A stretch of 32,474 bases of DNA from a virus (taxonomy: Duplodnaviria; Heunggongvirae; Uroviricota; Caudoviricetes), in the IMG/VR virus record IMGVR_UViG_2554235297_000015. One strand, written 5' to 3'. Positions 238 through 14,685 of this stretch are shown piece by piece. The notes beneath the pieces were generated by a model. That model did not search any database and had not been told where the DNA came from. It worked only from the letters and a program-made list of their open reading frames with translations. How positions within the stretch are numbered: the stretch's first letter is position 1; each line of letters starts with the position of its first letter. A program made the translations under genes and the position numbers.

Positions 238-2279
238 TGTTTTATTCAGCCAATGAGCTGGCCGGTCTTCCTGGTTTGCCCGGTACAGTTCAGGGGGTGC
301 GCTGGACGCTCAATCGGATCACAGAGACGCACCCAGAATGGAAGCGCAAGCGCGAAGGCACCAAAGCATTCGAGTATCACATCGACTGCCTGCCCGCTGA
401 AGCGCAGAAAGTTTTACGTAAGCGCCTGACTCATCAGGTCCTGGAAGATGCACAACTGCCCGCCGTAGTTGAGCAGAAAGCAGTTAAAAACGTCGCCGTT
501 CGCGATGAACTGGAGGTGATGGTCAAATGCCCGGAGCTGGCATTACGCGAAGTCCAGTCACTGACCGACAAGCAAAAGGCCATCGCTGATGCGCGGATAT
601 TGCTGGCTACTGAAGTGCATAAGCTGCGCGAGTATGCCGGAATGACCAGGAAGGCCGCTTTAAAGCACATCGTTGATGGTGTGCGCATGGGGGCGTTACC
701 TGACCGCATTATCGAAGCAGCGAATACTGCAAATGCACGTCAGGGAAAGCGAACCGGTGTCAGCACCGGCAGCCTGGATAGCTGGTACTCCAGCTGGGTG
801 ATGGCGCGCGGTGATGCCAATCAGTTACTGGCGTTACTGGCTCCCGGTCATCATAAGGGAACACCGTGGGAGCAGGTCTGGTGGTTGAGCGATTTCTTTA
901 TGTTCTATCGCTCATGGAAGCGCCCGACTGTTGAATATGCGTATCGTGAGTTTTCAGCCTGGTGGCATGAAAAACACGCGAATGATGCGGGAATGCTGGC
1001 GGCACTGCCTTCAGTTCACGCAGTAAGACGGGTGTTAAGCAGCGTCCCGGTGATTGTTAAAGAGCGTTTCCGCTCCACCGGTTCAGCCTGGCGTTCGCTC
1101 AATCCCTTTGTGCGGCGCGACTGGACATCATTACCGGTTAATGCGGTATGGGTCGGGGATGGTCACTGTATGAAAATGACCGCGTTTAACCCCCTGACCG
1201 GCAATATTTTCCGGCCAGAAGTGACGCTGGTTATGGATGCGGGGCAACGCTTTGTTGTGGGCTGGTCACTGTCCCTGTCGGAGAACGTGATAGCCGTTGC
1301 TGATGCGTTACGTTACGGCATGGCGCAGCACGGGATACCGCTGATTTATTACTCCGATAACGGGGGCGGTGAAAAAAACCGGGTGCTTGATGCCGATATT
1401 ACCGGGATTCTGCCCCGGCTGGGTGTGGAACATCACACGGGGATACCAGGTAACCCGCAGGGGCGCGGGGTGATTGAACGGGCAAACAAAGGAATACCCA
1501 AAGACGTGGCTCTGAGTTTCCAGACGTACTGCGCAAGGGATGCAGACAAGGAAACCGTAATGATGCAGCAACGGATTATGCAGTCAGCCATTAAGGCCAC
1601 CCACAAAGGGAAAGAACTGACAAAACGGCAGGTTAAGGCGAGGGATGAAATCCCCACCTTTGAGCAACTGCTGGCAGCCATAGAGCTGGAGGTCAGACGC
1701 TATAACAACCGGCCACACAGCAGCCTACCCCGCAAAGAGGATGGCGAATATTACAGCCCGGCAGCGTATCGCCGGAAACTGATAAAAGAGCAGAATGTTG
1801 AAATTGATTTCCTGTCGCCGGAAGAACTGCATGAAATGTTCAGACCGGAAGTGACGCGCAAAACATTTCGCGGGGAAATTCAGTTATTCAACAATATTTA
1901 TTACTCATATGATCTGGCCGCAGAGCACGGGAATGAAGTCAGGGTCAGTTACGATATTCATGATGCAAACAGCGTCATTGTCCGGCGGGCTGATGGCTCT
2001 TATATCTGCGATGCCATCTGGAACGGTAACAAGGTTGATGCCTTCGCTAAACCAGTTATCGAACAAAAACTGGAGAAACGCGTCAGGGGCCGCATTGCAC
2101 GGGCTACGCAGAAAATCGAAGAGGCTAAACGCGAGCTTACCCCGGCTATTACGCAGAAGCCTGACTTTAATCTGGGATATGGACTGGAGCGCCCGGAGAA
2201 AAAGGAAAAAGAAGAACTTTATTTATTCGCATCTGAACGCGAGCGCAATTTAAAGAAAAACGGCACAAACAACCGTTAA
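237..2279 (+). CDS. MuA-like DDE transposase
   Basis: 680 aa. N-terminal region resembles the MuA DNA-binding domain (NELAGLPGLP...). Central integrase-core-like region (WVGDGH...SDNGGGEKN). Size and position match Mu A. Confidence 0.9.
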   Translation: MFYSANELAGLPGLPGTVQGVRWTLNRITETHPEWKRKREGTKAFEYHIDCLPAEAQKVLRKRLTHQVLEDAQLPAVVEQKAVKNVAVRDELEVMVKCPELALREVQSLTDKQKAIADARILLATEVHKLREYAGMTRKAALKHIVDGVRMGALPDRIIEAANTANARQGKRTGVSTGSLDSWYSSWVMARGDANQLLALLAPGHHKGTPWEQVWWLSDFFMFYRSWKRPTVEYAYREFSAWWHEKHANDAGMLAALPSVHAVRRVLSSVPVIVKERFRSTGSAWRSLNPFVRRDWTSLPVNAVWVGDGHCMKMTAFNPLTGNIFRPEVTLVMDAGQRFVVGWSLSLSENVIAVADALRYGMAQHGIPLIYYSDNGGGEKNRVLDADITGILPRLGVEHHTGIPGNPQGRGVIERANKGIPKDVALSFQTYCARDADKETVMMQQRIMQSAIKATHKGKELTKRQVKARDEIPTFEQLLAAIELEVRRYNNRPHSSLPRKEDGEYYSPAAYRRKLIKEQNVEIDFLSPEELHEMFRPEVTRKTFRGEIQLFNNIYYSYDLAAEHGNEVRVSYDIHDANSVIVRRADGSYICDAIWNGNKVDAFAKPVIEQKLEKRVRGRIARATQKIEEAKRELTPAITQKPDFNLGYGLERPEKKEKEELYLFASERERNLKKNGTNNR

Positions 2280-3430: not shown

Positions 3431-3686
3431 GAGGAAATCAGAATGGCGGTCAAGTTAGAAGTAATTATCTACACCGATGAAAATGGCACGCTTCGTGTCA
3501 GGAGTATGGGGGCTATTGATAAAAAGGATTTACGGATGAAGAGGTCGGTGTAAGACAACGGTTATGGGAGGTAATGAATCAAACTCTTAATAAAGAATTT
3601 AACGGCGTTGATTTATTTTCTGTTGGCGTGGAACCCTGCGCGCATAACACACATTAATCTGTAAATATCACTGAGGTAATTTAATT

Positions 3687-4331
3687 ATGACGACTGAAAA
3701 TAAAGTTAAGCAATACACGAAAACTCAAGCGCCTGAAGGTTACTGGGTGGATGCCCGTGGCGTAATGACACCTGAAAGCCTTATCAAAGATATTGACCGC
3801 GACCGCGAGCAGCTGGTCGGTGAGCTTGTGGAGATGGTGATTGCTGCCTCCGCCTCACTGCGGGAACTGAAACTGCGTGCGTTTGGTGATATTCAGGCGT
3901 TTATTGACCTGTCGGCGGAGAAATACGGCGCTGTGAAAGGCGGTAAAAAAGGGAATATCACGCTTTACAGCTTTGACGGGCGTTACAAGATTCAGCGCGC
4001 CATGCAGGACCGTATCGCGTTTGATGAACGCATTCAGACCGCGAAGTCGCTGATTGATGATTGCCTGGCTGACTGGACGGAAGATGCACGCCCTGAAATT
4101 AAGGCCATCATCAGTGAGGCATTCAGCACGGACAAGGAAGGCAACATCAACACCGGTCGCGTTCTGGCCCTGCGTCGCCTCGAGATTGAGGACGAACGCT
4201 GGAATAACGCCATGTCGCTGATTGGTGAAGCCGTCCAGGTAATTGGCAGCAAAAGCTATATCCGCGTGTATGAGCGCGTCGGTGATTCTGCTGAATACCG
4301 CGCAATCCCGCTTGATATTGCAGGGGTTTAA
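3687..4331 (+). CDS. hypothetical early protein, 214 aa (possibly a DUF3164-type Mu-like prophage protein)
   Basis: Long clean ORF with GAGGT upstream of the ATG. The family assignment is from memory only. Confidence 0.6.
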   Translation: MTTENKVKQYTKTQAPEGYWVDARGVMTPESLIKDIDRDREQLVGELVEMVIAASASLRELKLRAFGDIQAFIDLSAEKYGAVKGGKKGNITLYSFDGRYKIQRAMQDRIAFDERIQTAKSLIDDCLADWTEDARPEIKAIISEAFSTDKEGNINTGRVLALRRLEIEDERWNNAMSLIGEAVQVIGSKSYIRVYERVGDSAEYRAIPLDIAGV

Positions 4332-4332
4332 C

Positions 4333-4566
4333 ATGCATCAGGATATCAAAGAGTACAGGGCTGGGAACCGTTGCGCAGCGTATTCGCTGGGCGCGTCCAG
4401 AGCAGAACAACGCGGCGATTATGCCGAAGCTGAAAAACTGTGGCGTAAGGCAGCACAAAGCCCGTGTAGTACCCTGCGCCGCATCTGGGCGGAACACCGG
4501 GCAGAGTTCTGTGCCAATGCTCACCTGAAAGGATGGAAGCCGCCTCATGAACGCGAAACGCTTTAA
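4333..4566 (+). CDS. hypothetical early protein, 77 aa
   Basis: ATG 4333 preceded by AGGGG with a 6 nt spacer, two bases after the upstream stop. The ORF-track start at 4243 overlaps the upstream gene and is less likely. Confidence 0.5.
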   Translation: MHQDIKEYRAGNRCAAYSLGASRAEQRGDYAEAEKLWRKAAQSPCSTLRRIWAEHRAEFCANAHLKGWKPPHERETL

Positions 4567-5898: not shown

Positions 5899-6126
5899 AT
5901 GGCTTTTAAACTTCTTAGTGTTACCGAAGCAATATACCAGCCGCCCGGAGAACGCCACGAATACAGGATGAATGACGGTAGCGCGGTGGTTGAGTTCCCC
6001 GGATATCCGGGGGCTTCCCGGTGGCGGTTCTATGACAGTGTGGGACGTCGGATTATTAAAAGAACCGTGCACAACAATATGAAGGCTGCCGTAGAACGTC
6101 ATAAGAGAAGGTTTAACTGCAAATGA
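5899..6126 (+). CDS. hypothetical early protein, 75 aa
   Basis: Strong RBS GGGGAGGG 5 nt upstream of the ATG. Confidence 0.55.
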   Translation: MAFKLLSVTEAIYQPPGERHEYRMNDGSAVVEFPGYPGASRWRFYDSVGRRIIKRTVHNNMKAAVERHKRRFNCK

Positions 6127-6353
6127 AAATTGAATTTTATGACCATGGGGTCACCGCAACTATCACTATTTCTTGTTGGTTCTGGGAGTTCCACCGTTAC
6201 TTCAGAGTTGTAGATGCTGCGCTGTTTGTTGCACCGGGAGCGTTACATCACAGTGGAATCGGTATTGTTATGAACACTGTCATCAGCGGTAAAACGGTCC
6301 CGATGTTGCGGGCGTTTAAAGTGGCAAAACAGGAGGCTGGCAATGGTCATTGA
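6123..6353 (+). CDS. hypothetical early protein, 76 aa
   Basis: ATGA start/stop overlap with the upstream gene. Weak RBS. Confidence 0.35.
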   Translation: MKIEFYDHGVTATITISCWFWEFHRYFRVVDAALFVAPGALHHSGIGIVMNTVISGKTVPMLRAFKVAKQEAGNGH

Positions 6354-6657
6354 TAAAACGATAACGATAGATGTAGCCATGAATACAGGTCTGGCGCTTA
6401 TCGGTTATGGCTATATCACTTTTATGTCATTCAGGTGGTTGATTTCTTCGCTCTTTAAGCAGCGTGAAAAACATCGTTGTAAAGACAAGCGCGCGAAGGC
6501 GCTAAATGCGTTTAATGACGCTTTTGATATTGACCATATGCAACAGGGCGACCCCGCACGCGTAATTACCCGGGGAGATATTGTAATTCTTGTGTACCGG
6601 AATGAAAAAAATGAACAGGAGACAACCAGTGAGTCAGCAAACCAGAATAAGCGATAA
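6343..6657 (+). CDS. small membrane protein, 104 aa
   Basis: AGGAGG 6 nt upstream of the ATG. Hydrophobic segment GLALIGYGYITFMSFRWLISSLF followed by a charged tail. AT-rich coding sequence. Confidence 0.55.
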   Translation: MVIDKTITIDVAMNTGLALIGYGYITFMSFRWLISSLFKQREKHRCKDKRAKALNAFNDAFDIDHMQQGDPARVITRGDIVILVYRNEKNEQETTSESANQNKR

Positions 6658-6793
6658 GAGTCTGACCAGACTGATTGCCGATGCGGACAAGGTGCTGGAG
6701 CGGAACTCCCCCGTTGCCGATGAGGAATGGTGGCAGGATTTCCGGGCTGCAATGCTGGAACTTCAGGAACGTCGTCGGGAGGTGTTGAAGTGA
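6629..6793 (+). CDS. hypothetical early protein, about 54 aa
   Basis: GTG 6629 preceded by AGGAGA with a 6 nt spacer. The ORF track opens at 6590 in the same frame. Confidence 0.4.
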   Translation: MSQQTRISDKSLTRLIADADKVLERNSPVADEEWWQDFRAAMLELQERRREVLK

Positions 6794-7059
6794 GTGAATT
6801 AAAGTGTCGAATTAATGGCAATCAGATAGAACCGTGTGCGGTACTGGCAAAAGCACTCGAATATGGAAATCCAGCCTTTAAGAGTAAAGGCATATTTATC
6901 CCGGAACGCGTGAATATAAACACCGGCGAGCCAGGCTTAGACATTGCTCAAATTCACTCCGGCCAATATGTCGGTCGTGGTGTTGCCATGTGTTTTTGCC
7001 CGTTCTGTGGTGAAAGTCTGAAAACATGGAAAAAGGAGGCAACCAGTGAGCGAGATTAA
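6790..7059 (+). CDS. hypothetical Cys-rich protein, possible zinc ribbon, about 89 aa
   Basis: GTG 6790 preceded by GGGAGG with a 7 nt spacer, GTGA overlap with the upstream stop. Contains CxxxxxxxxxC and CPFCG. Confidence 0.45.
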   Translation: MSELKCRINGNQIEPCAVLAKALEYGNPAFKSKGIFIPERVNINTGEPGLDIAQIHSGQYVGRGVAMCFCPFCGESLKTWKKEATSERD

Positions 7060-7543
7060 CTATCAGGCACTGCGTGAGGTGGCAGAGGCCGCGAAGGGGG
7101 ATACGACGTGGCAGAACCTACAGGCTTTTCATGCTGCGGCTACGCCGGAGGTTGTGCAGGCGTTGCTGGATGAAAACGAAAGACTGTGTCGCGATCTGAT
7201 AGCTCGTAATGGTGAGATTGAAGGGCTTCGGGAGTGGGCAGAAGAACTGGAGGCACGGGAGGTGGCTTTGCCAGTAGCGTCATGCATTGTTGAAGATGGA
7301 TGCATGTGTGTTGATGGGTTCAGTGAGTATGTAGGTCACTCGCTACCTGATGGAATGCATGAGCTTTATGCTGCCCCGCCAGCGTCGGTAGTGCCGGAAG
7401 GACTAGTTAAAGCAGTGCGTTTCTATGAACAGGTAAAGTGTGAGAATCCGCCAGTCGAAACCGGAGCATGGAAAGACGCGGTTGACTGGGTACTCAACGA
7501 GGCTTGCCAGGCTGTAAATATTGACGCCAAAGGAGGTGCGTAA
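7046..7543 (+). CDS. hypothetical protein, possibly Ead/Ea22-like
   Basis: GTG start preceded by AAGGAGG. N-terminus ALREVAEAAKGDTTWQ...AATPEVVQALLDENERL resembles the Ead/Ea22 prophage family. The family call is from memory. Confidence 0.5.
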   Translation: MSEINYQALREVAEAAKGDTTWQNLQAFHAAATPEVVQALLDENERLCRDLIARNGEIEGLREWAEELEAREVALPVASCIVEDGCMCVDGFSEYVGHSLPDGMHELYAAPPASVVPEGLVKAVRFYEQVKCENPPVETGAWKDAVDWVLNEACQAVNIDAKGGA

Positions 7544-9087: not shown

Positions 9088-9098
9088 GACTTAGTTTA

Positions 9099-9125
9099 GC
9101 CCCTGCCATGCAGGGGCTTTTTTTG
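9099..9125 (+). terminator. rho-independent terminator
   Basis: GCCCCTGC catg CAGGGGC stem-loop followed by TTTTTTTG. Confidence 0.8.
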
Positions 9126-9130
9126 TGGTC

Positions 9131-9158
9131 TGTACAGGCGATCATGTATGGCTATAAT
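9131..9158 (+). promoter_or_regulatory. candidate sigma70-type promoter for the Mor/C gene
   Basis: TGTACA (9131..9136), 16 bp spacer, perfect TATAAT (9153..9158), about 30 nt upstream of the ATG at 9188. Confidence 0.35.
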
Positions 9159-9187
9159 AACAGTAAGTTACTACCGGAGACGCCATC

Positions 9188-9979: not shown

Positions 9980-9997
9980 GGGGTGCTGAACTCCCCC
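9980..9997 (+). promoter_or_regulatory. dyad element copy A (GGGGTG ctgaa CTCCCC), upstream of the lysis cassette
   Basis: Imperfect copy of the GGGTG-CTGAA-CACCC dyad also found at 18138 and 30056. Overlaps an 8 bp GC hairpin at 9966..9985. Confidence 0.4.
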
Positions 9998-10142
9998 AGC
10001 AGTACCCACCACACCAGACCGTTTACCCTGTCCACTCAGACCACAAGGCACCTTAAGGGATAGCGCCCTGCAAAAGGCTTTTGTGCCTTTGACAGGGTGT
10101 TATTTACGGGCCGTCAGTGGCTCAGATTTACAGGAGAAACTC

Positions 10143-11549: not shown

Positions 11550-11756
11550 GTGAGCATTATCAGATTTACAGAATACAGAGGTTCAGGAGGTGCTGGCGCT
11601 GTCATGGTGCTCGCTGAACGCATCACCCATTTTTACCGTCAGTACGGTACACATGATGGCACGGTCATTGAACTGGATACCGGGAAAAACGTGTTTGTTC
11701 TTGAAAATCCCGACGAAGTTCAGCGCAGGATTGAACAGGCTCAGAAGGACACTTAA
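11550..11756 (+). CDS. hypothetical protein, 68 aa
   Basis: GTG start. Alternative start ATG 11604. No family recognised. Confidence 0.4.
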   Translation: MSIIRFTEYRGSGGAGAVMVLAERITHFYRQYGTHDGTVIELDTGKNVFVLENPDEVQRRIEQAQKDT

Positions 11757-12256
11757 TGGCGTGGTCACAGGATATCAGGGACAAAGTCCGTAACGGGTAC
11801 ATCTTTGACCAGCTTCCGCTGGATATCGTCGCCATGAAGTACGCCGTGCCGCACGATACCGCGCGGCGCTGGAAAACGCAGGCGATGAAGAACGGCGACG
11901 ACTGGGACAAGCTGCGGGCCGCTCACGCGCTCGCCGGTGACGGGCTGGAAAGTGTCGCCCGCACCGTACTTATCAGTCTGGTGGTGAAGTGTCAGACGAC
12001 GCTTGAACGGCTGAACCAGAACCCGGACATCCCGCCGCAGGAGTCCGTCGAACTGCTGGCGAGTCTGTCTGACAGTCTCAGTAAGGCGGTGTCCAGCAGT
12101 AAAAAAATCCTGCCGGAAACCGACCGGCTGGCCACGGCACTGGAAGTGGTGCAGCGGCTCGGCGCGTTCATCAAGGAGCGTCACCCGGCACAGTATGCCC
12201 CGTTTCTTGAGGTGCTCGAAGGCTTCGCTAAAGAGCTTGAGGATAATTTCAGTTAA
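11756..12256 (+). CDS. terminase small subunit, Mu gp27-like (DUF1804)
   Basis: 166 aa. Position immediately upstream of the large terminase. N-terminal DNA-binding-like region. Confidence 0.65.
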   Translation: MAWSQDIRDKVRNGYIFDQLPLDIVAMKYAVPHDTARRWKTQAMKNGDDWDKLRAAHALAGDGLESVARTVLISLVVKCQTTLERLNQNPDIPPQESVELLASLSDSLSKAVSSSKKILPETDRLATALEVVQRLGAFIKERHPAQYAPFLEVLEGFAKELEDNFS

Positions 12257-12262
12257 CCACAG

Positions 12263-12282
12263 CGGCCCGGTTTTCCGGGCCG
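12263..12282 (+). other. GC-rich hairpin between the small terminase gene and the methyltransferase gene
   Basis: CGGCCCGG tttt CCGGGCCG (8 bp stem). Only a weak U-tract follows. Confidence 0.35.
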
Positions 12283-12302
12283 TCTGATATTCGGGATTTG
12301 TA

Positions 12303-13043
12303 ATGCAAAAACAGATTATTGGTAACGCAACGTTGTATTGCGGTGATGTTCTTGATGTGCTGCCGGCGTTATCCGAACGTTTTGATGCCGTCATTACCGA
12401 CCCGCCTTACAGCAGTGGTGGCACACATAAATCAGACCGCAGCATGGCCCCTTCGGACAAGTATGTCGGTCACACCCAGTATGCCGAGTTCAGCGGGGAT
12501 AACCGCGACCAGCGCAGCTGGGCATACTGGAGCACCCTGTGGATGTCCGGGGCTGCCCGCCTTGTGCGCCCCGGTGGTTATGTCATGGTGTTCAGTGACT
12601 GGCGACAGCTTCCCACCATGACCGACGTTTTTCAGGCCGGTGGTGTGCTGTGGCGTGGTCTTGTTGTCTGGGATAAAACGCAGGCTTCCCGTGCGCCACA
12701 CACCGGCTATTTCCGGCATCAGGCCGAGTATGTGGTCTGGGGCAGCAACGGAAAACTCGACAAATGCCCGCACGGTGGCCCGTTCCCGGGTGTGATTACG
12801 CAGCGCGTTGTCCCGTCCGAAAAACTGCATATGACGGCAAAGCCAGTTCAGTTGATGGCCGAGCTGGTTAAACCGCTGGCACCGGATGCGCACGTTCTCG
12901 ATCCGTTTATGGGAAGCGGCACCACCGCCATCCCTGTACTGGCCCGTGGCGGACGGTTTACCGGCATTGAAATGACTAACCAGTATTTTGATATCGCCTG
13001 CGCACGTCTCGAAAAAGCGCAGGCAGAAGCAGCGCAGGTGTGA
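12303..13043 (+). CDS. orphan DNA methyltransferase, beta class (motif IV DPPY before motif I FMGSGTT), probably N6-adenine
   Basis: 246 aa. DPPY at about residue 33, DPFMGSGTT at about residue 200. No restriction endonuclease gene adjacent. Confidence 0.85.
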   Translation: MQKQIIGNATLYCGDVLDVLPALSERFDAVITDPPYSSGGTHKSDRSMAPSDKYVGHTQYAEFSGDNRDQRSWAYWSTLWMSGAARLVRPGGYVMVFSDWRQLPTMTDVFQAGGVLWRGLVVWDKTQASRAPHTGYFRHQAEYVVWGSNGKLDKCPHGGPFPGVITQRVVPSEKLHMTAKPVQLMAELVKPLAPDAHVLDPFMGSGTTAIPVLARGGRFTGIEMTNQYFDIACARLEKAQAEAAQV

Positions 13044-13044
13044 C

Positions 13045-14685
13045 GTGGCAAAACGTAAACTTTCCATTAAAGAGTTTCAGAGAAGCTTACAGGAGTACAT
13101 CGCCAACCTCCGCCAGACCATTGAGGCTGAATGTCTGGGGTTCGATGTAAACCCGCAGGCCACACAGGCCCGCCGGGCGGCAGTCTGTGACCCGGTGACG
13201 GGCTACGATTATTTTGTCGAAAACTATTTCCCGCACTACGTCCGCAACCCGGCAAAAAGCGAGCTGCATAAATACCTGTTCAGCCGTCTGCCACAGGTTG
13301 TGGCAAGCCCGGACCCGGAGAACGACGCCATCGCCGCGCCCCGTGGTGAAGCAAAATCCACGCTGGTGACTCAGCTGTTTACCCTGTGGAACATTATCCG
13401 GGCCATTAAACATTATCCGGTCATCATTATGGACAGTATCGACCAGGCTTATCCGATGCTGGAAGCCATCAAGGCTGAACTGGAATTTAACCCCCGTTTA
13501 AAAAACGATTTCCCGGAAGTGTGCGGACAGGGGCGCGTCTGGCGTATGGGGACCATCGTCACGGCCAACAATATCAAGGTGACCGTTGCTGGTAGTGGTA
13601 AAAAACTGCGTGGGCTGCGCCACGGTCCGTACCGTCCTGACCTGGTTATCCTCGACGACATCGAGAACGACGAGATGGTGCGTAGCCCGGAGCAGCGCGA
13701 CAAGCTGCATGACTGGCTTACCAAAACCGTGATGCCGCTGGGCGAGGCTGGCGGTAAAACCGATATTATTTATATCGGAACCATCCTGCATTACGACTCC
13801 GTGCTGTCGCGCACACTCAATAACCCGATGTGGAAAACAGCCCGCTTTAAGGCTGTTATTCAGTGGCCTGCCAACATGAAACTGTGGGACGAGTGGGAAG
13901 AACTCATCCGCAACAAACAGCCGGAAGCAGCGGAGGCACTTTACCGACAGAACGAAGCCGACATGCTCGCCGGGTCGGTGGTGTCATGGGCGGCGCGTCC
14001 CCTGCTGGCGCTGATGAAAATCCGTGTCCGTGACGGTCATGACACCTTTGATTCTGAATACCAGAACGACCCGGTCAGCGGTGAAGATGCGCTGTTTGCG
14101 GGCTGCATTAAGTTCTGGGTTAACCGTCTTGATGAATGGGTGTTTTATGGTGCTGTTGACCCCAGTCTCGGGAAGAAGAATAAAAACCGCGACCCGTCGG
14201 CCATTCTCGTGGGGGGCTTTAACCGTTTTACCGGCATTCTGGATGTGGTTGAAGCCGATATCCGCCGACGCCTGCCAAATAAACTTATCGAAGACGTGAT
14301 TAAGTATCAGCGGGAATACCACTGTCTGTGCTGGTCGTTTGAGTCCGTCCAGTTTCAGGAGTTTCTGCGCACCGTGCTGGTTGAGCGTTCGGCGGCGCTG
14401 GGCGTTCCGGTTCCGGCGCTGCCGGTCATCCCGCTGGAGGATAAAGCGCTGCGTATCGAATCCCTTCAGCCGCATATGGCCAACGGCCTGATCCGCATCA
14501 GTCCGGCACATCAGACGCTGATTGACCAGCTGCGCCACTACCCCAAAGCCGACCACGATGATGGCCCGGACTGTCTGCACATGCTGTGGACGCTGGCGGT
14601 ATCGCGTAGCGCAAAATTTCAGATACACACCCCACGCAGCACCGGGCGTGACCGTGGCGGGCGTTTTGGTTCAGGAGGATGGTAA
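13045..14685 (+). CDS. terminase large subunit, Mu gp28-like
   Basis: About 546 aa from GTG 13045, two bases after the methyltransferase stop. The ORF-track frame opens at 12988 inside the methyltransferase gene. Size and position match the Mu large terminase. Confidence 0.8.
   Translation: MAKRKLSIKEFQRSLQEYIANLRQTIEAECLGFDVNPQATQARRAAVCDPVTGYDYFVENYFPHYVRNPAKSELHKYLFSRLPQVVASPDPENDAIAAPRGEAKSTLVTQLFTLWNIIRAIKHYPVIIMDSIDQAYPMLEAIKAELEFNPRLKNDFPEVCGQGRVWRMGTIVTANNIKVTVAGSGKKLRGLRHGPYRPDLVILDDIENDEMVRSPEQRDKLHDWLTKTVMPLGEAGGKTDIIYIGTILHYDSVLSRTLNNPMWKTARFKAVIQWPANMKLWDEWEELIRNKQPEAAEALYRQNEADMLAGSVVSWAARPLLALMKIRVRDGHDTFDSEYQNDPVSGEDALFAGCIKFWVNRLDEWVFYGAVDPSLGKKNKNRDPSAILVGGFNRFTGILDVVEADIRRRLPNKLIEDVIKYQREYHCLCWSFESVQFQEFLRTVLVERSAALGVPVPALPVIPLEDKALRIESLQPHMANGLIRISPAHQTLIDQLRHYPKADHDDGPDCLHMLWTLAVSRSAKFQIHTPRSTGRDRGGRFGSGGW

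Follow-up and report, generated by a model that had tools for sequence, protein, structure and literature searches.

Mu-like prophages that lack mom carry adenine methyltransferases, namely, Hin1523, Nma1821, and Hia5, which block many restriction enzymes (Drozdz et al. 2012, PMC3299994). These three proteins are Dam-related members of the alpha class, in which the FxGxG motif comes first and DPPY lies near residue 194; they generate m6A non-specifically, and their genes occupy the right end of the prophage, in the position of mom (PMC3299994). M.EcoGII, in turn, is a prophage-borne beta-class enzyme that is silent in the lysogen and presumably becomes active upon induction (PMC5778455). The methylases of P2-like phages have been predicted to shield the DNA of the phage from restriction, and one of them, KS5 gp20 of a Burkholderia P2-like phage, is accompanied by the Com-like gp21 (PMC3091744). 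A further system is defined by its location. The slot that separates the small terminase gene from the large one in transposable phages has been described as a moron site, and in phage JBD26 it holds Tab and anti-Tab, of which the latter is encoded on the same strand as the late operon, is co-transcribed with it, and acts in the lytic cycle (PMC10884400). By gene numbering, JBD26 gp29 is the protein that Patel et al. 2024 term the "small terminase", and deletion of the small terminase of phage DMS3 results in empty proheads (PMC10884400).

The gene considered here occupies the same slot in a window of 32,474 nucleotides, which is the whole stretch of viral DNA that was analyzed. Positions 11700-13400 of the window were found by megablast to be 100% identical to positions 2728776-2730476 of the E. 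coli O127:H6 E2348/69 genome (NC_011601.1). According to the RefSeq annotation, the corresponding element of E2348/69 is a Mu-like transposable prophage of approximately 35.7 kb that splits eutC. Its genes encode a repressor, a Ner-like protein, a Mu-type transposase with its AAA+ partner, GemA, and an activator of the Mor/C family, as well as holins, a GH108 lysin, a DUF1804 protein, a DNA-methyltransferase, TerL, a Mu-type portal, head and contractile-tail proteins, and tail fibres. Related prophages in strains Ec55 and OkiPb01701 end directly behind the tail fibres, as is the case here, and their insertion sites differ, being a gene for an M24 peptidase and fliH. A megablast search of the region against GenBank phages returned no match, and the element is known as a prophage only. 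The methyltransferase gene already bears the RefSeq label "DNA-methyltransferase" (WP_001171800.1), and our literature searches found no published work on the gene, its protein accession, the E2348/69 methylome, the Bpm protein of phage BPP-1, or the Mu-like element of E2348/69.

The gene extends over positions 12303..13043 on the plus strand, starts with ATG, and encodes a solitary beta-class DNA amino-methyltransferase of 246 amino acids. This assignment had been made in the initial annotation from the sequence alone, and the open reading frame, the motifs, the Pfam match, and the fold agree with it. The catalytic motif IV, T-DPPY (12399..12410 on the plus strand, with DPPY at amino acids 33-36), precedes the AdoMet-binding motif I, FMGSGTT (12906..12926 on the plus strand, amino acids 202-208), and the order of DPPY followed by FxGxG corresponds to the beta permutation. 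The protein matched the Pfam family PF01555 (N6_N4_Mtase; 82.3 bits, E 6.5e-23, cut-off 26.7), the PADLOC model MTase_II (Type II MTase; 7.6e-65), and phrog_67 of PHROGs (1.3e-55). No catalytic motif was lost in an alignment of 24 homologues with identities down to 56%, in which T32, D33, P34, P35, and Y36 as well as D200, P201, F202, M203, G204, S205, and T208 are invariant, together with about 70 further columns outside both motifs. With dN/dS values of 0.07-0.22 relative to its relatives, the gene is intact and under purifying selection.

An AlphaFold model generated from the 24-homologue alignment (pLDDT 81.7, pTM 0.82) was matched by Foldseek, at a probability of 1.0 and with 17-24% sequence identity, to the solved methyltransferases CcrM, M1.HpyAVI, M.BceJIV, M.MboIIA, and M.RsrI, for which the query-normalised TM-scores were 0.62-0.77. 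Reading the target sequence off these solved relatives was ruled out, given these identities and their differing specificities (GANTC, GAGG, and GTWWAC). The methylated base is most likely N6-adenine. The family is compact and has no discrete target-recognition domain. The two predicted low-confidence loops of the model, at amino acids 37-68 and 129-137, coincide with the highly conserved sequences GDNRDQRSW and SSRAPHTGYFRHQ; these presumed DNA-contact loops are almost invariant from the phages of Enterobacterales to those of Burkholderiales, and their conservation suggests that the whole family may share one target. A separate observation concerns variation among the E. coli alleles of the gene: compared with the E2348/69 allele, they show about 14 substitutions that are tightly clustered at amino acids 70-112, in the helix that follows motif IV, between flanks that are 99% identical. 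This cluster resembles a recombination patch.

Upstream of the methyltransferase gene, positions 11756..12256 on the plus strand encode a DUF1804 protein (Pfam DUF1804, E 4.5e-52), the small-terminase equivalent of transposable phages of the D3112/JBD26 type. With D3112 orf24 and JBD26 gp29 it shares about 50% identity, and it is this kinship, rather than a route through Mu, that makes the label "small terminase" reasonable. Downstream lies the large terminase gene terL (13045..14685 on the plus strand; TIGR01630, 2.4e-24; phrog_38, 1.1e-142; annotated as terL in RefSeq), and this is followed by the gene for the Mu-type portal, which is 36% identical to Mu gp29. The flanking genes had initially been described as gp27-like and gp28-like, with the remark that their counterparts are adjacent in Mu. 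The remark is correct, since gp27 and gp28 of Mu are separated by a spacer of just 7 nt, and the neighbours are indeed the genes for the small and the large terminase, but the similarity implied by the names was not recovered: no sequence similarity to Mu gp27/gp28 could be detected for either the DUF1804 gene or terL (E > 1 in tblastn). Judged by their sequences, both flanking genes are of the D3112/JBD26 type and are positional analogues, not homologues, of the Mu genes.

The methyltransferase gene is an accessory cassette with a presence/absence polymorphism in E. coli. Among 55 E. coli genomes with a match to the region, it was present in 36 and absent from 19, with flanks that are 95-100% identical. 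The 19 alleles without the gene are 736 bp shorter, and their flanks are 97.6-99.2% identical. Junction alignment showed that the segment specific to the methyltransferase-carrying allele comprises positions 12292..13034 on the plus strand, that is, a weak Shine-Dalgarno sequence, GGGA, and the open reading frame up to codon 244; where the gene is missing, the 7 nt TGTATAC take the place of this segment. Four such alleles read CCGGGCCGTCTGATATT-TGTATAC-CAGGTGTGACGTGG across the junction, with TGCATAC in one. The alleles lacking the gene also keep CAGGTGTGA, which forms the last two codons and the stop of the methyltransferase gene and is at the same time the ribosome-binding site of terL. The content of the cassette is thus a Shine-Dalgarno sequence and an open reading frame alone, without the promoter and terminator of its own that belong to the classical definition of a moron. 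Any benefit that the gene confers is conditional, since it is missing from 19 of 55 near-identical E. coli prophages.

As to the origin of this polymorphism, the methyltransferase gene is located immediately 5' of terL in three viral contigs (L091, L092, and L093) and in a Yersinia prophage. In the three contigs the methyltransferases are 70-76% and the TerL proteins 77-89% identical to those described here, and the junction "CAGGTGTAA C GTG" is kept in L091 and L092. The presence of the gene next to terL in these diverged elements favours an old association that was followed by loss; the 7-nt filler TGTATAC is not accounted for by a simple deletion. Elsewhere the same slot carries other cargo: apart from Tab/anti-Tab in JBD26, there is a reverse-strand open reading frame in D3112 and there are three small open reading frames in a Klebsiella phage.

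At its 3' end the gene is tightly joined to terL. The junction, at positions 13036..13047 on the plus strand, is composed of the Shine-Dalgarno sequence AGGTG (13036-13040), the stop codon TGA (13041-13043), C 13044, and the start codon GTG (13045-13047), so that a single base, and not two as had been noted initially, separates the stop of the methyltransferase gene from the start of terL. The arrangement "CAGGTGTRA C GTG" is conserved in the diverged contigs L091 and L092, whose TerL proteins are 88-89% identical to the present one, and also in the alleles without the methyltransferase gene. As the AGGTG of terL sits within the last methyltransferase codons, we propose that translation of the two genes may be coupled.

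The 46-nt spacer upstream of the methyltransferase gene contains a backbone hairpin only. This G+C hairpin 3' of the DUF1804 gene (12263..12282 on the plus strand) has a perfect 8-bp stem, 12263-12270 / 12275-12282, and a TTTT loop, and its 86-nt context folds with a z of -3.7 relative to shuffles. It has no U-tract and was not called by the terminator scan. The initial annotation had placed the hairpin in front of the gene; it is present there, but it is no part of the cassette, since it is identical in the alleles without the methyltransferase gene, where it lies directly upstream of terL. The position of terL directly behind it in those alleles also indicates that the hairpin is no efficient terminator. 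It is a possible attenuator of transcription, yet terL is located behind the same hairpin there. Interpretations of the hairpin as a cassette boundary, as a terminator, or as a translational element of the Com type were rejected in view of its retention in these alleles, the missing U-tract, and the absence of Com.

From the Mor/C-like gene onward, every gene is encoded on the plus strand. In front of this gene lie a strong terminator at 9098-9118 and a promoter-like site at 9131-9158, and no sigma-70-like site was detected between positions 9159 and 15000. A box of 27 nt, GGGTGCTGAACNCCCNCNNCAGTACCC, located at 9981..10007 on the plus strand upstream of the holin gene, is a putative late promoter or activator site. 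A second copy is found at 18139..18165, upstream of the protease/capsid genes; the box occurs exactly twice in the window as compared to 0 occurrences in 100 shuffles, and its two positions are equivalent to those of Plys and PI of Mu. No copy is near the methyltransferase gene, which is located about 2.3 kb downstream of the first box. This box would be the putative late promoter for the transcription unit to which the methyltransferase gene belongs, and we infer that the first late transcript includes the gene, which would be silent in the lysogen. The earlier proposal that its placement favours co-expression with the packaging genes is in line with the shared strand, with the lack of a promoter-like site in this interval, and with the terL Shine-Dalgarno sequence in its last codons.

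A regular expression search of the 35.7-kb prophage for open reading frames of at least 60 amino acids with both [DNS]PP[YFWH] and FxGxG identified the methyltransferase gene as the only one. No restriction endonuclease is annotated across the prophage, and PADLOC returned no defence match for the neighbouring and antisense open reading frames, which bears out the initial statement that no cognate restriction endonuclease is nearby. A hidden gene on the opposite strand was also considered and rejected: two antisense open reading frames of 211 and 209 amino acids had no PADLOC match and look like shadow reading frames in G+C-rich coding DNA. The gene had furthermore been set apart from the mom system, which Mu carries at the opposite end of the genome. 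There is, however, no second system from which it could be separate, as this prophage and its relatives are without Mom or Com. Searches of the whole prophage with Mu Mom, Mu Com, and the Com protein of phage Chuche gave best tblastn E values of 0.55-6.5, and near the right end there is a remnant of a Gin-like invertase that consists of its first 31 codons only. With Mom and Com missing, the methyltransferase gene is the only DNA-modification gene of this lineage.

The prophage bears traces of restriction. GATC is strongly depleted, with 39 observed and 149 expected sites, and many 6-bp palindromes are depleted as well, among them CTGCAG (0 observed, 15 expected), GGCGCC (0 and 16), and GCCGGC (1 and 23); for 6-bp palindromes overall, 367 were observed and 545 expected. 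Such avoidance of restriction sites shows a history of restriction pressure on the prophage and hence a real selective force. Given its depletion, GATC is an unlikely target of the methyltransferase.

The enzyme belongs to a large family with more than 5,900 homologues at E <= 1e-20, and a homologue is present in 703 phage records; a scan of genome contigs yielded mostly distant homologues. The genomic placement of family members varies. In the Yersinia prophage mentioned above the order is small terminase, methyltransferase, and large terminase, and in an Enterobacter element the methyltransferase likewise comes after the small terminase but is followed by two small open reading frames before the large terminase. 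A widespread Salmonella Mu-like prophage has the gene between holin and lysozyme, and in individual contigs it is found upstream of DUF1804 (L106), overlapping the terL start (L112, with a TerL identity of 34%), between large terminase and portal (L108), or after the portal (L116, L118, L119, and L141). In P2-like phages it either follows gpX or is located between the sheath gene and the tail-fibre/invertase genes, and in many P2-like phages of E. coli and Burkholderia it lies directly 3' of a gene for a Com-like zinc-finger protein. Bpm of BPP-1, with 52% identity, adjoins the repressor/cro (cI/cro) genes. The initial emphasis on terminase adjacency consequently applies to the present prophage and is no fixed feature of the family, given the holin/lysozyme, post-terminase, and post-portal sites and those in the tail modules of P2-like phages. 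What the Mu-like and P2-like placements have in common is the late operon and not a given neighbour, with BPP-1 as the exception.

The best explanation of these data, which we consider probable, is late-expressed self-methylation that serves the evasion of restriction in the next host; the late expression, the methylated base, the target, and the anti-restriction benefit all enter into this proposal as inferred elements. After induction, the Mor/C-type activator would activate the late promoter that lies upstream of the holin gene, and the methyltransferase would be translated from one mRNA together with the small and large terminases. The enzyme would then methylate the replicated DNA of the phage just before headful packaging or in its course, so that progeny DNA would reach the next host pre-modified and escape restriction enzymes with sites that overlap the methylated motif. 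In functional terms the enzyme would stand in for Mom, which is missing from the lineage. As the gene is expected to be silent in the lysogen, we propose that the host DNA is left unmodified there.

Two alternatives assign a different role to the enzyme. Dam methylation, as Sternberg and Coulby reportedly found in 1990, controls pac cleavage in phage P1, and the methyltransferase might likewise mark or regulate the pac/terminase substrate or time packaging. Such a role would fit the conservation of the tight terL junction in L091 and L092 at a TerL identity of only 88-89%, the location directly 5' of terL in L093 and across the terL start in L112, and the proximity to the large terminase or the portal in other Mu-like contigs. 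The varied late-operon placements of the family weaken a packaging-specific model, however: the Salmonella site between holin and lysozyme, the P2-like sites at the tail-fibre/invertase-sheath interval or after gpX, and the BPP-1 site beside cI/cro are all at odds with it. Moreover, the 19 near-identical E. coli prophages without the gene are inserted at other loci, such as fliH, which indicates that it is not needed for packaging, and terL has an identical ribosome-binding site with and without the methyltransferase. A role in packaging is very unlikely. Orphan methyltransferases can also act as epigenetic regulators, and this general possibility is a point in favour of a moron that is expressed in the lysogen and methylates the host DNA, thereby altering gene expression or marking self for a restriction or exclusion function encoded elsewhere. 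Many morons of the same slot are indeed defences expressed in the lysogen, Tab of JBD26 being one of them (PMC10884400). Tab, however, lies on the minus strand and possesses a promoter of its own, whereas the methyltransferase gene is on the late strand, has a weak Shine-Dalgarno sequence and no promoter-like site, and comes as a cassette of Shine-Dalgarno sequence and reading frame. The homologues of P2-like phages are under late translational control of the Com type, and neither the annotation of the prophage nor PADLOC, applied to the neighbours, revealed a partner nuclease. We therefore regard a function in the lysogen as very unlikely.

The remaining alternative leaves restriction evasion as the role of the enzyme and concerns its chemistry, in that N4-cytosine rather than N6-adenine would be methylated. 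DPPY is typical of adenine enzymes, whereas N4-cytosine enzymes usually have SPP[YF]. The motif IV of the present protein is DPPY, its best sequence and fold matches are the adenine enzymes M1.HpyAVI, CcrM, and M.BceJIV, and JGI annotates its homologues as adenine-specific, although this is an annotation and not a test. On the other hand, PF01555 covers both N6-adenine and N4-cytosine enzymes (also PMC3091744), and in the fold search a rotifer N4-cytosine methyltransferase and M.PvuII fell within the range of the adenine enzymes, the rotifer enzyme scoring nearly as high. On balance, an N4-cytosine enzyme is unlikely.

Self-methylation for restriction evasion remains the preferred interpretation, and it can be extended tentatively. 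The family may be the beta-class counterpart of Hia5, with very short or relaxed specificity, that serves mom-less transposable phages and P2-like phages as a general substitute for Mom and is timed by coupling to the terminase or by Com, so that only DNA near packaging becomes heavily methylated. We consider this generalization unlikely. If the enzyme is active, the DNA of the induced Mu-like phage of E2348/69 would bear a methylation motif that is missing from the lysogen. This would be relevant for the interpretation of methylomes and for host-range prediction among restricting E. coli strains, with a modest practical value.

A comparison with the known systems shows where this locus stands. 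With Mom/Com of Mu it shares the modification of self DNA for restriction evasion in a transposable phage, expressed late in Mu and, as inferred, also here; there is no homology (tblastn E >= 0.55), the product is acetamidoadenine in one case and presumably a methylated base in the other, and location and control differ. Hin1523, Nma1821, and Hia5 follow the same logic of a solitary adenine methyltransferase in a mom-less Mu-like prophage. The present enzyme, in contrast, is of the beta class, has DPPY at residue 33, and is encoded in the packaging region; it is the published description of the motif order that sets the two types apart, and kinship with the alpha-class Hia5 was rejected. M.EcoGII and M.EcoGI, which are non-specific enzymes of E. 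coli prophages, resemble it in being beta-class, prophage-encoded members of the broad phrog_67. They differ in their length of 349-352 amino acids, with a central region about 100 residues longer, and in their location between Q and stx of lambdoid phages instead of the packaging region of a Mu-like one. The 352-residue M.EcoGII homologue of phage 1720a-02 gave motif-level matches only (34% over 56 and 38% over 32 amino acids), and by way of this homologue kinship with M.EcoGII was rejected as well, there being no full-length similarity and no match for the central domain. Tab/anti-Tab of JBD26 occupies the same genomic slot beside a small terminase that is a DUF1804 homologue (about 50% identity), and the cargo differs, being a tail-assembly blocker with its antidote there and a DNA methyltransferase here.

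By sequence, the nearest true relatives are uncharacterised enzymes of about 250 amino acids from P2-like phages and BPP-1. The N4/N6 methylases of P2-like phages (gp20 of Burkholderia KS5, KL3 gp28, and the enzymes of Escherichia phage Chuche and Stenotrophomonas Smp131) and Bpm of Bordetella BPP-1 belong to the same family, with identities of 43-55% across some 95% of the length (55% for the Chuche enzyme and 43% for those of Burkholderia P2-like phages). Like the present enzyme, they are compact, of the beta class, and solitary, and with the exception of Bpm they are encoded in late operons. The P2-like genes often lie behind a Com-like zinc-finger regulator, whereas here there is no Com and the gene sits between the terminase genes and is, as proposed, coupled to terL. 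The core reading of the locus is sound but ordinary: the gene encodes an uncharacterised member of a large and recognised family of solitary phage methyltransferases and resides in a documented moron slot. One and the same methyltransferase family occupies at least five late-operon positions in Mu-like phages, stands under Com in P2-like phages, and is found in the early region of BPP-1. This comparative picture belongs to a known phage strategy, to which it adds no new principle, and it illustrates for most placements the precedence of late timing over genomic neighbourhood.

Restriction-site avoidance is strong across the whole 35.7-kb prophage, which comprises the window and its flanks. GATC occurs 39 times against 149 expected and GCCGGC once against 23; CTGCAG, GGCGCC, GCATGC, GAATTC, and GGATCC do not occur at all in these 35.7 kb. 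Pooled 6-bp palindromes number 367, compared with 545 expected.

Within the methyltransferase gene, approximately 14 clustered substitutions (window 12510..12640, corresponding to amino acids 70-112) distinguish other E. coli alleles from that of E2348/69, as determined by a comparison with L088, L089, L090, and L006, while identity among the E. coli alleles is about 99% over the remainder of the gene and in the two genes on either side of it. This stretch, located in the helix and strand following motif IV (DPPY), looks like a recombination patch.

In the diverged viral contig L092, an additional 99-amino-acid lipoprotein-like ORF with a Cys-containing signal peptide (1914..2213) lies between the small terminase and methyltransferase genes, and is a second moron in the slot of the methyltransferase; a terminator-like hairpin is also found there. 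The Phaseolibacter flectens locus L007 harbors two methyltransferase copies (3765..4544 and 6001..7413) about 1.5 kb apart, of which the second reads on as a 470-amino-acid ORF, suggesting a duplication and possibly a fusion. In a common Salmonella enterica Mu-like prophage (L180/L181, 2807..4286), a methyltransferase with 63% identity is located between the holin and lysozyme genes, overlapping each neighbor by 4 nt, and other small ORFs fill the slot between the terminase genes. In P2-like phages, a Com-like zinc-finger ORF is found directly 5' of the homologous methyltransferase (L002, 5778..5984; L120-L140; L011, L115, L117, and L151) and has a CxxC...CxxC core like that of Mu Com. These phages have thus put translational control of the Com type to a second use, on an unrelated modification enzyme.

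A 27-nt box, GGGTGCTGAACNCCCNCNNCAGTACCC, is present on the plus strand in exactly two copies (0 expected), one 5' of the holin/lysis-packaging genes (9981..10007) and the other 5' of the protease/capsid genes (18139..18165). The late activator of the Mor/C family probably binds at both copies or uses them as promoters; by analogy, they are probably the equivalents of Mu Plys and PI. Just 5' of the activator gene, the segment 9098..9158 (plus strand) holds a strong intrinsic terminator, with a 9-bp stem and a T7 tract after it, and immediately behind this a sigma-70-like promoter, the only one predicted between 9000 and 15000.

Neither Mom nor Com was found in the prophage. Adjoining its right end, just past the window, is a remnant of a Gin-like invertase with 77% identity to Mu Gin, of which only the first 31 codons are left (NC_011601.1, 2751460..2751552; positions 3461..3553 of the right-end flank L167). 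Inverted alternative tail-fibre genes have been kept. The related prophages of strains Ec55 and OkiPb01701 stop directly after the tail fibres.

Compared with Mu, the packaging module (window 11756..14685) is a hybrid. Its portal is Mu gp29-like (36% identity), whereas its DUF1804 small terminase and TerL have no detectable similarity to Mu gp27/gp28 and are of the D3112/JBD26 type.
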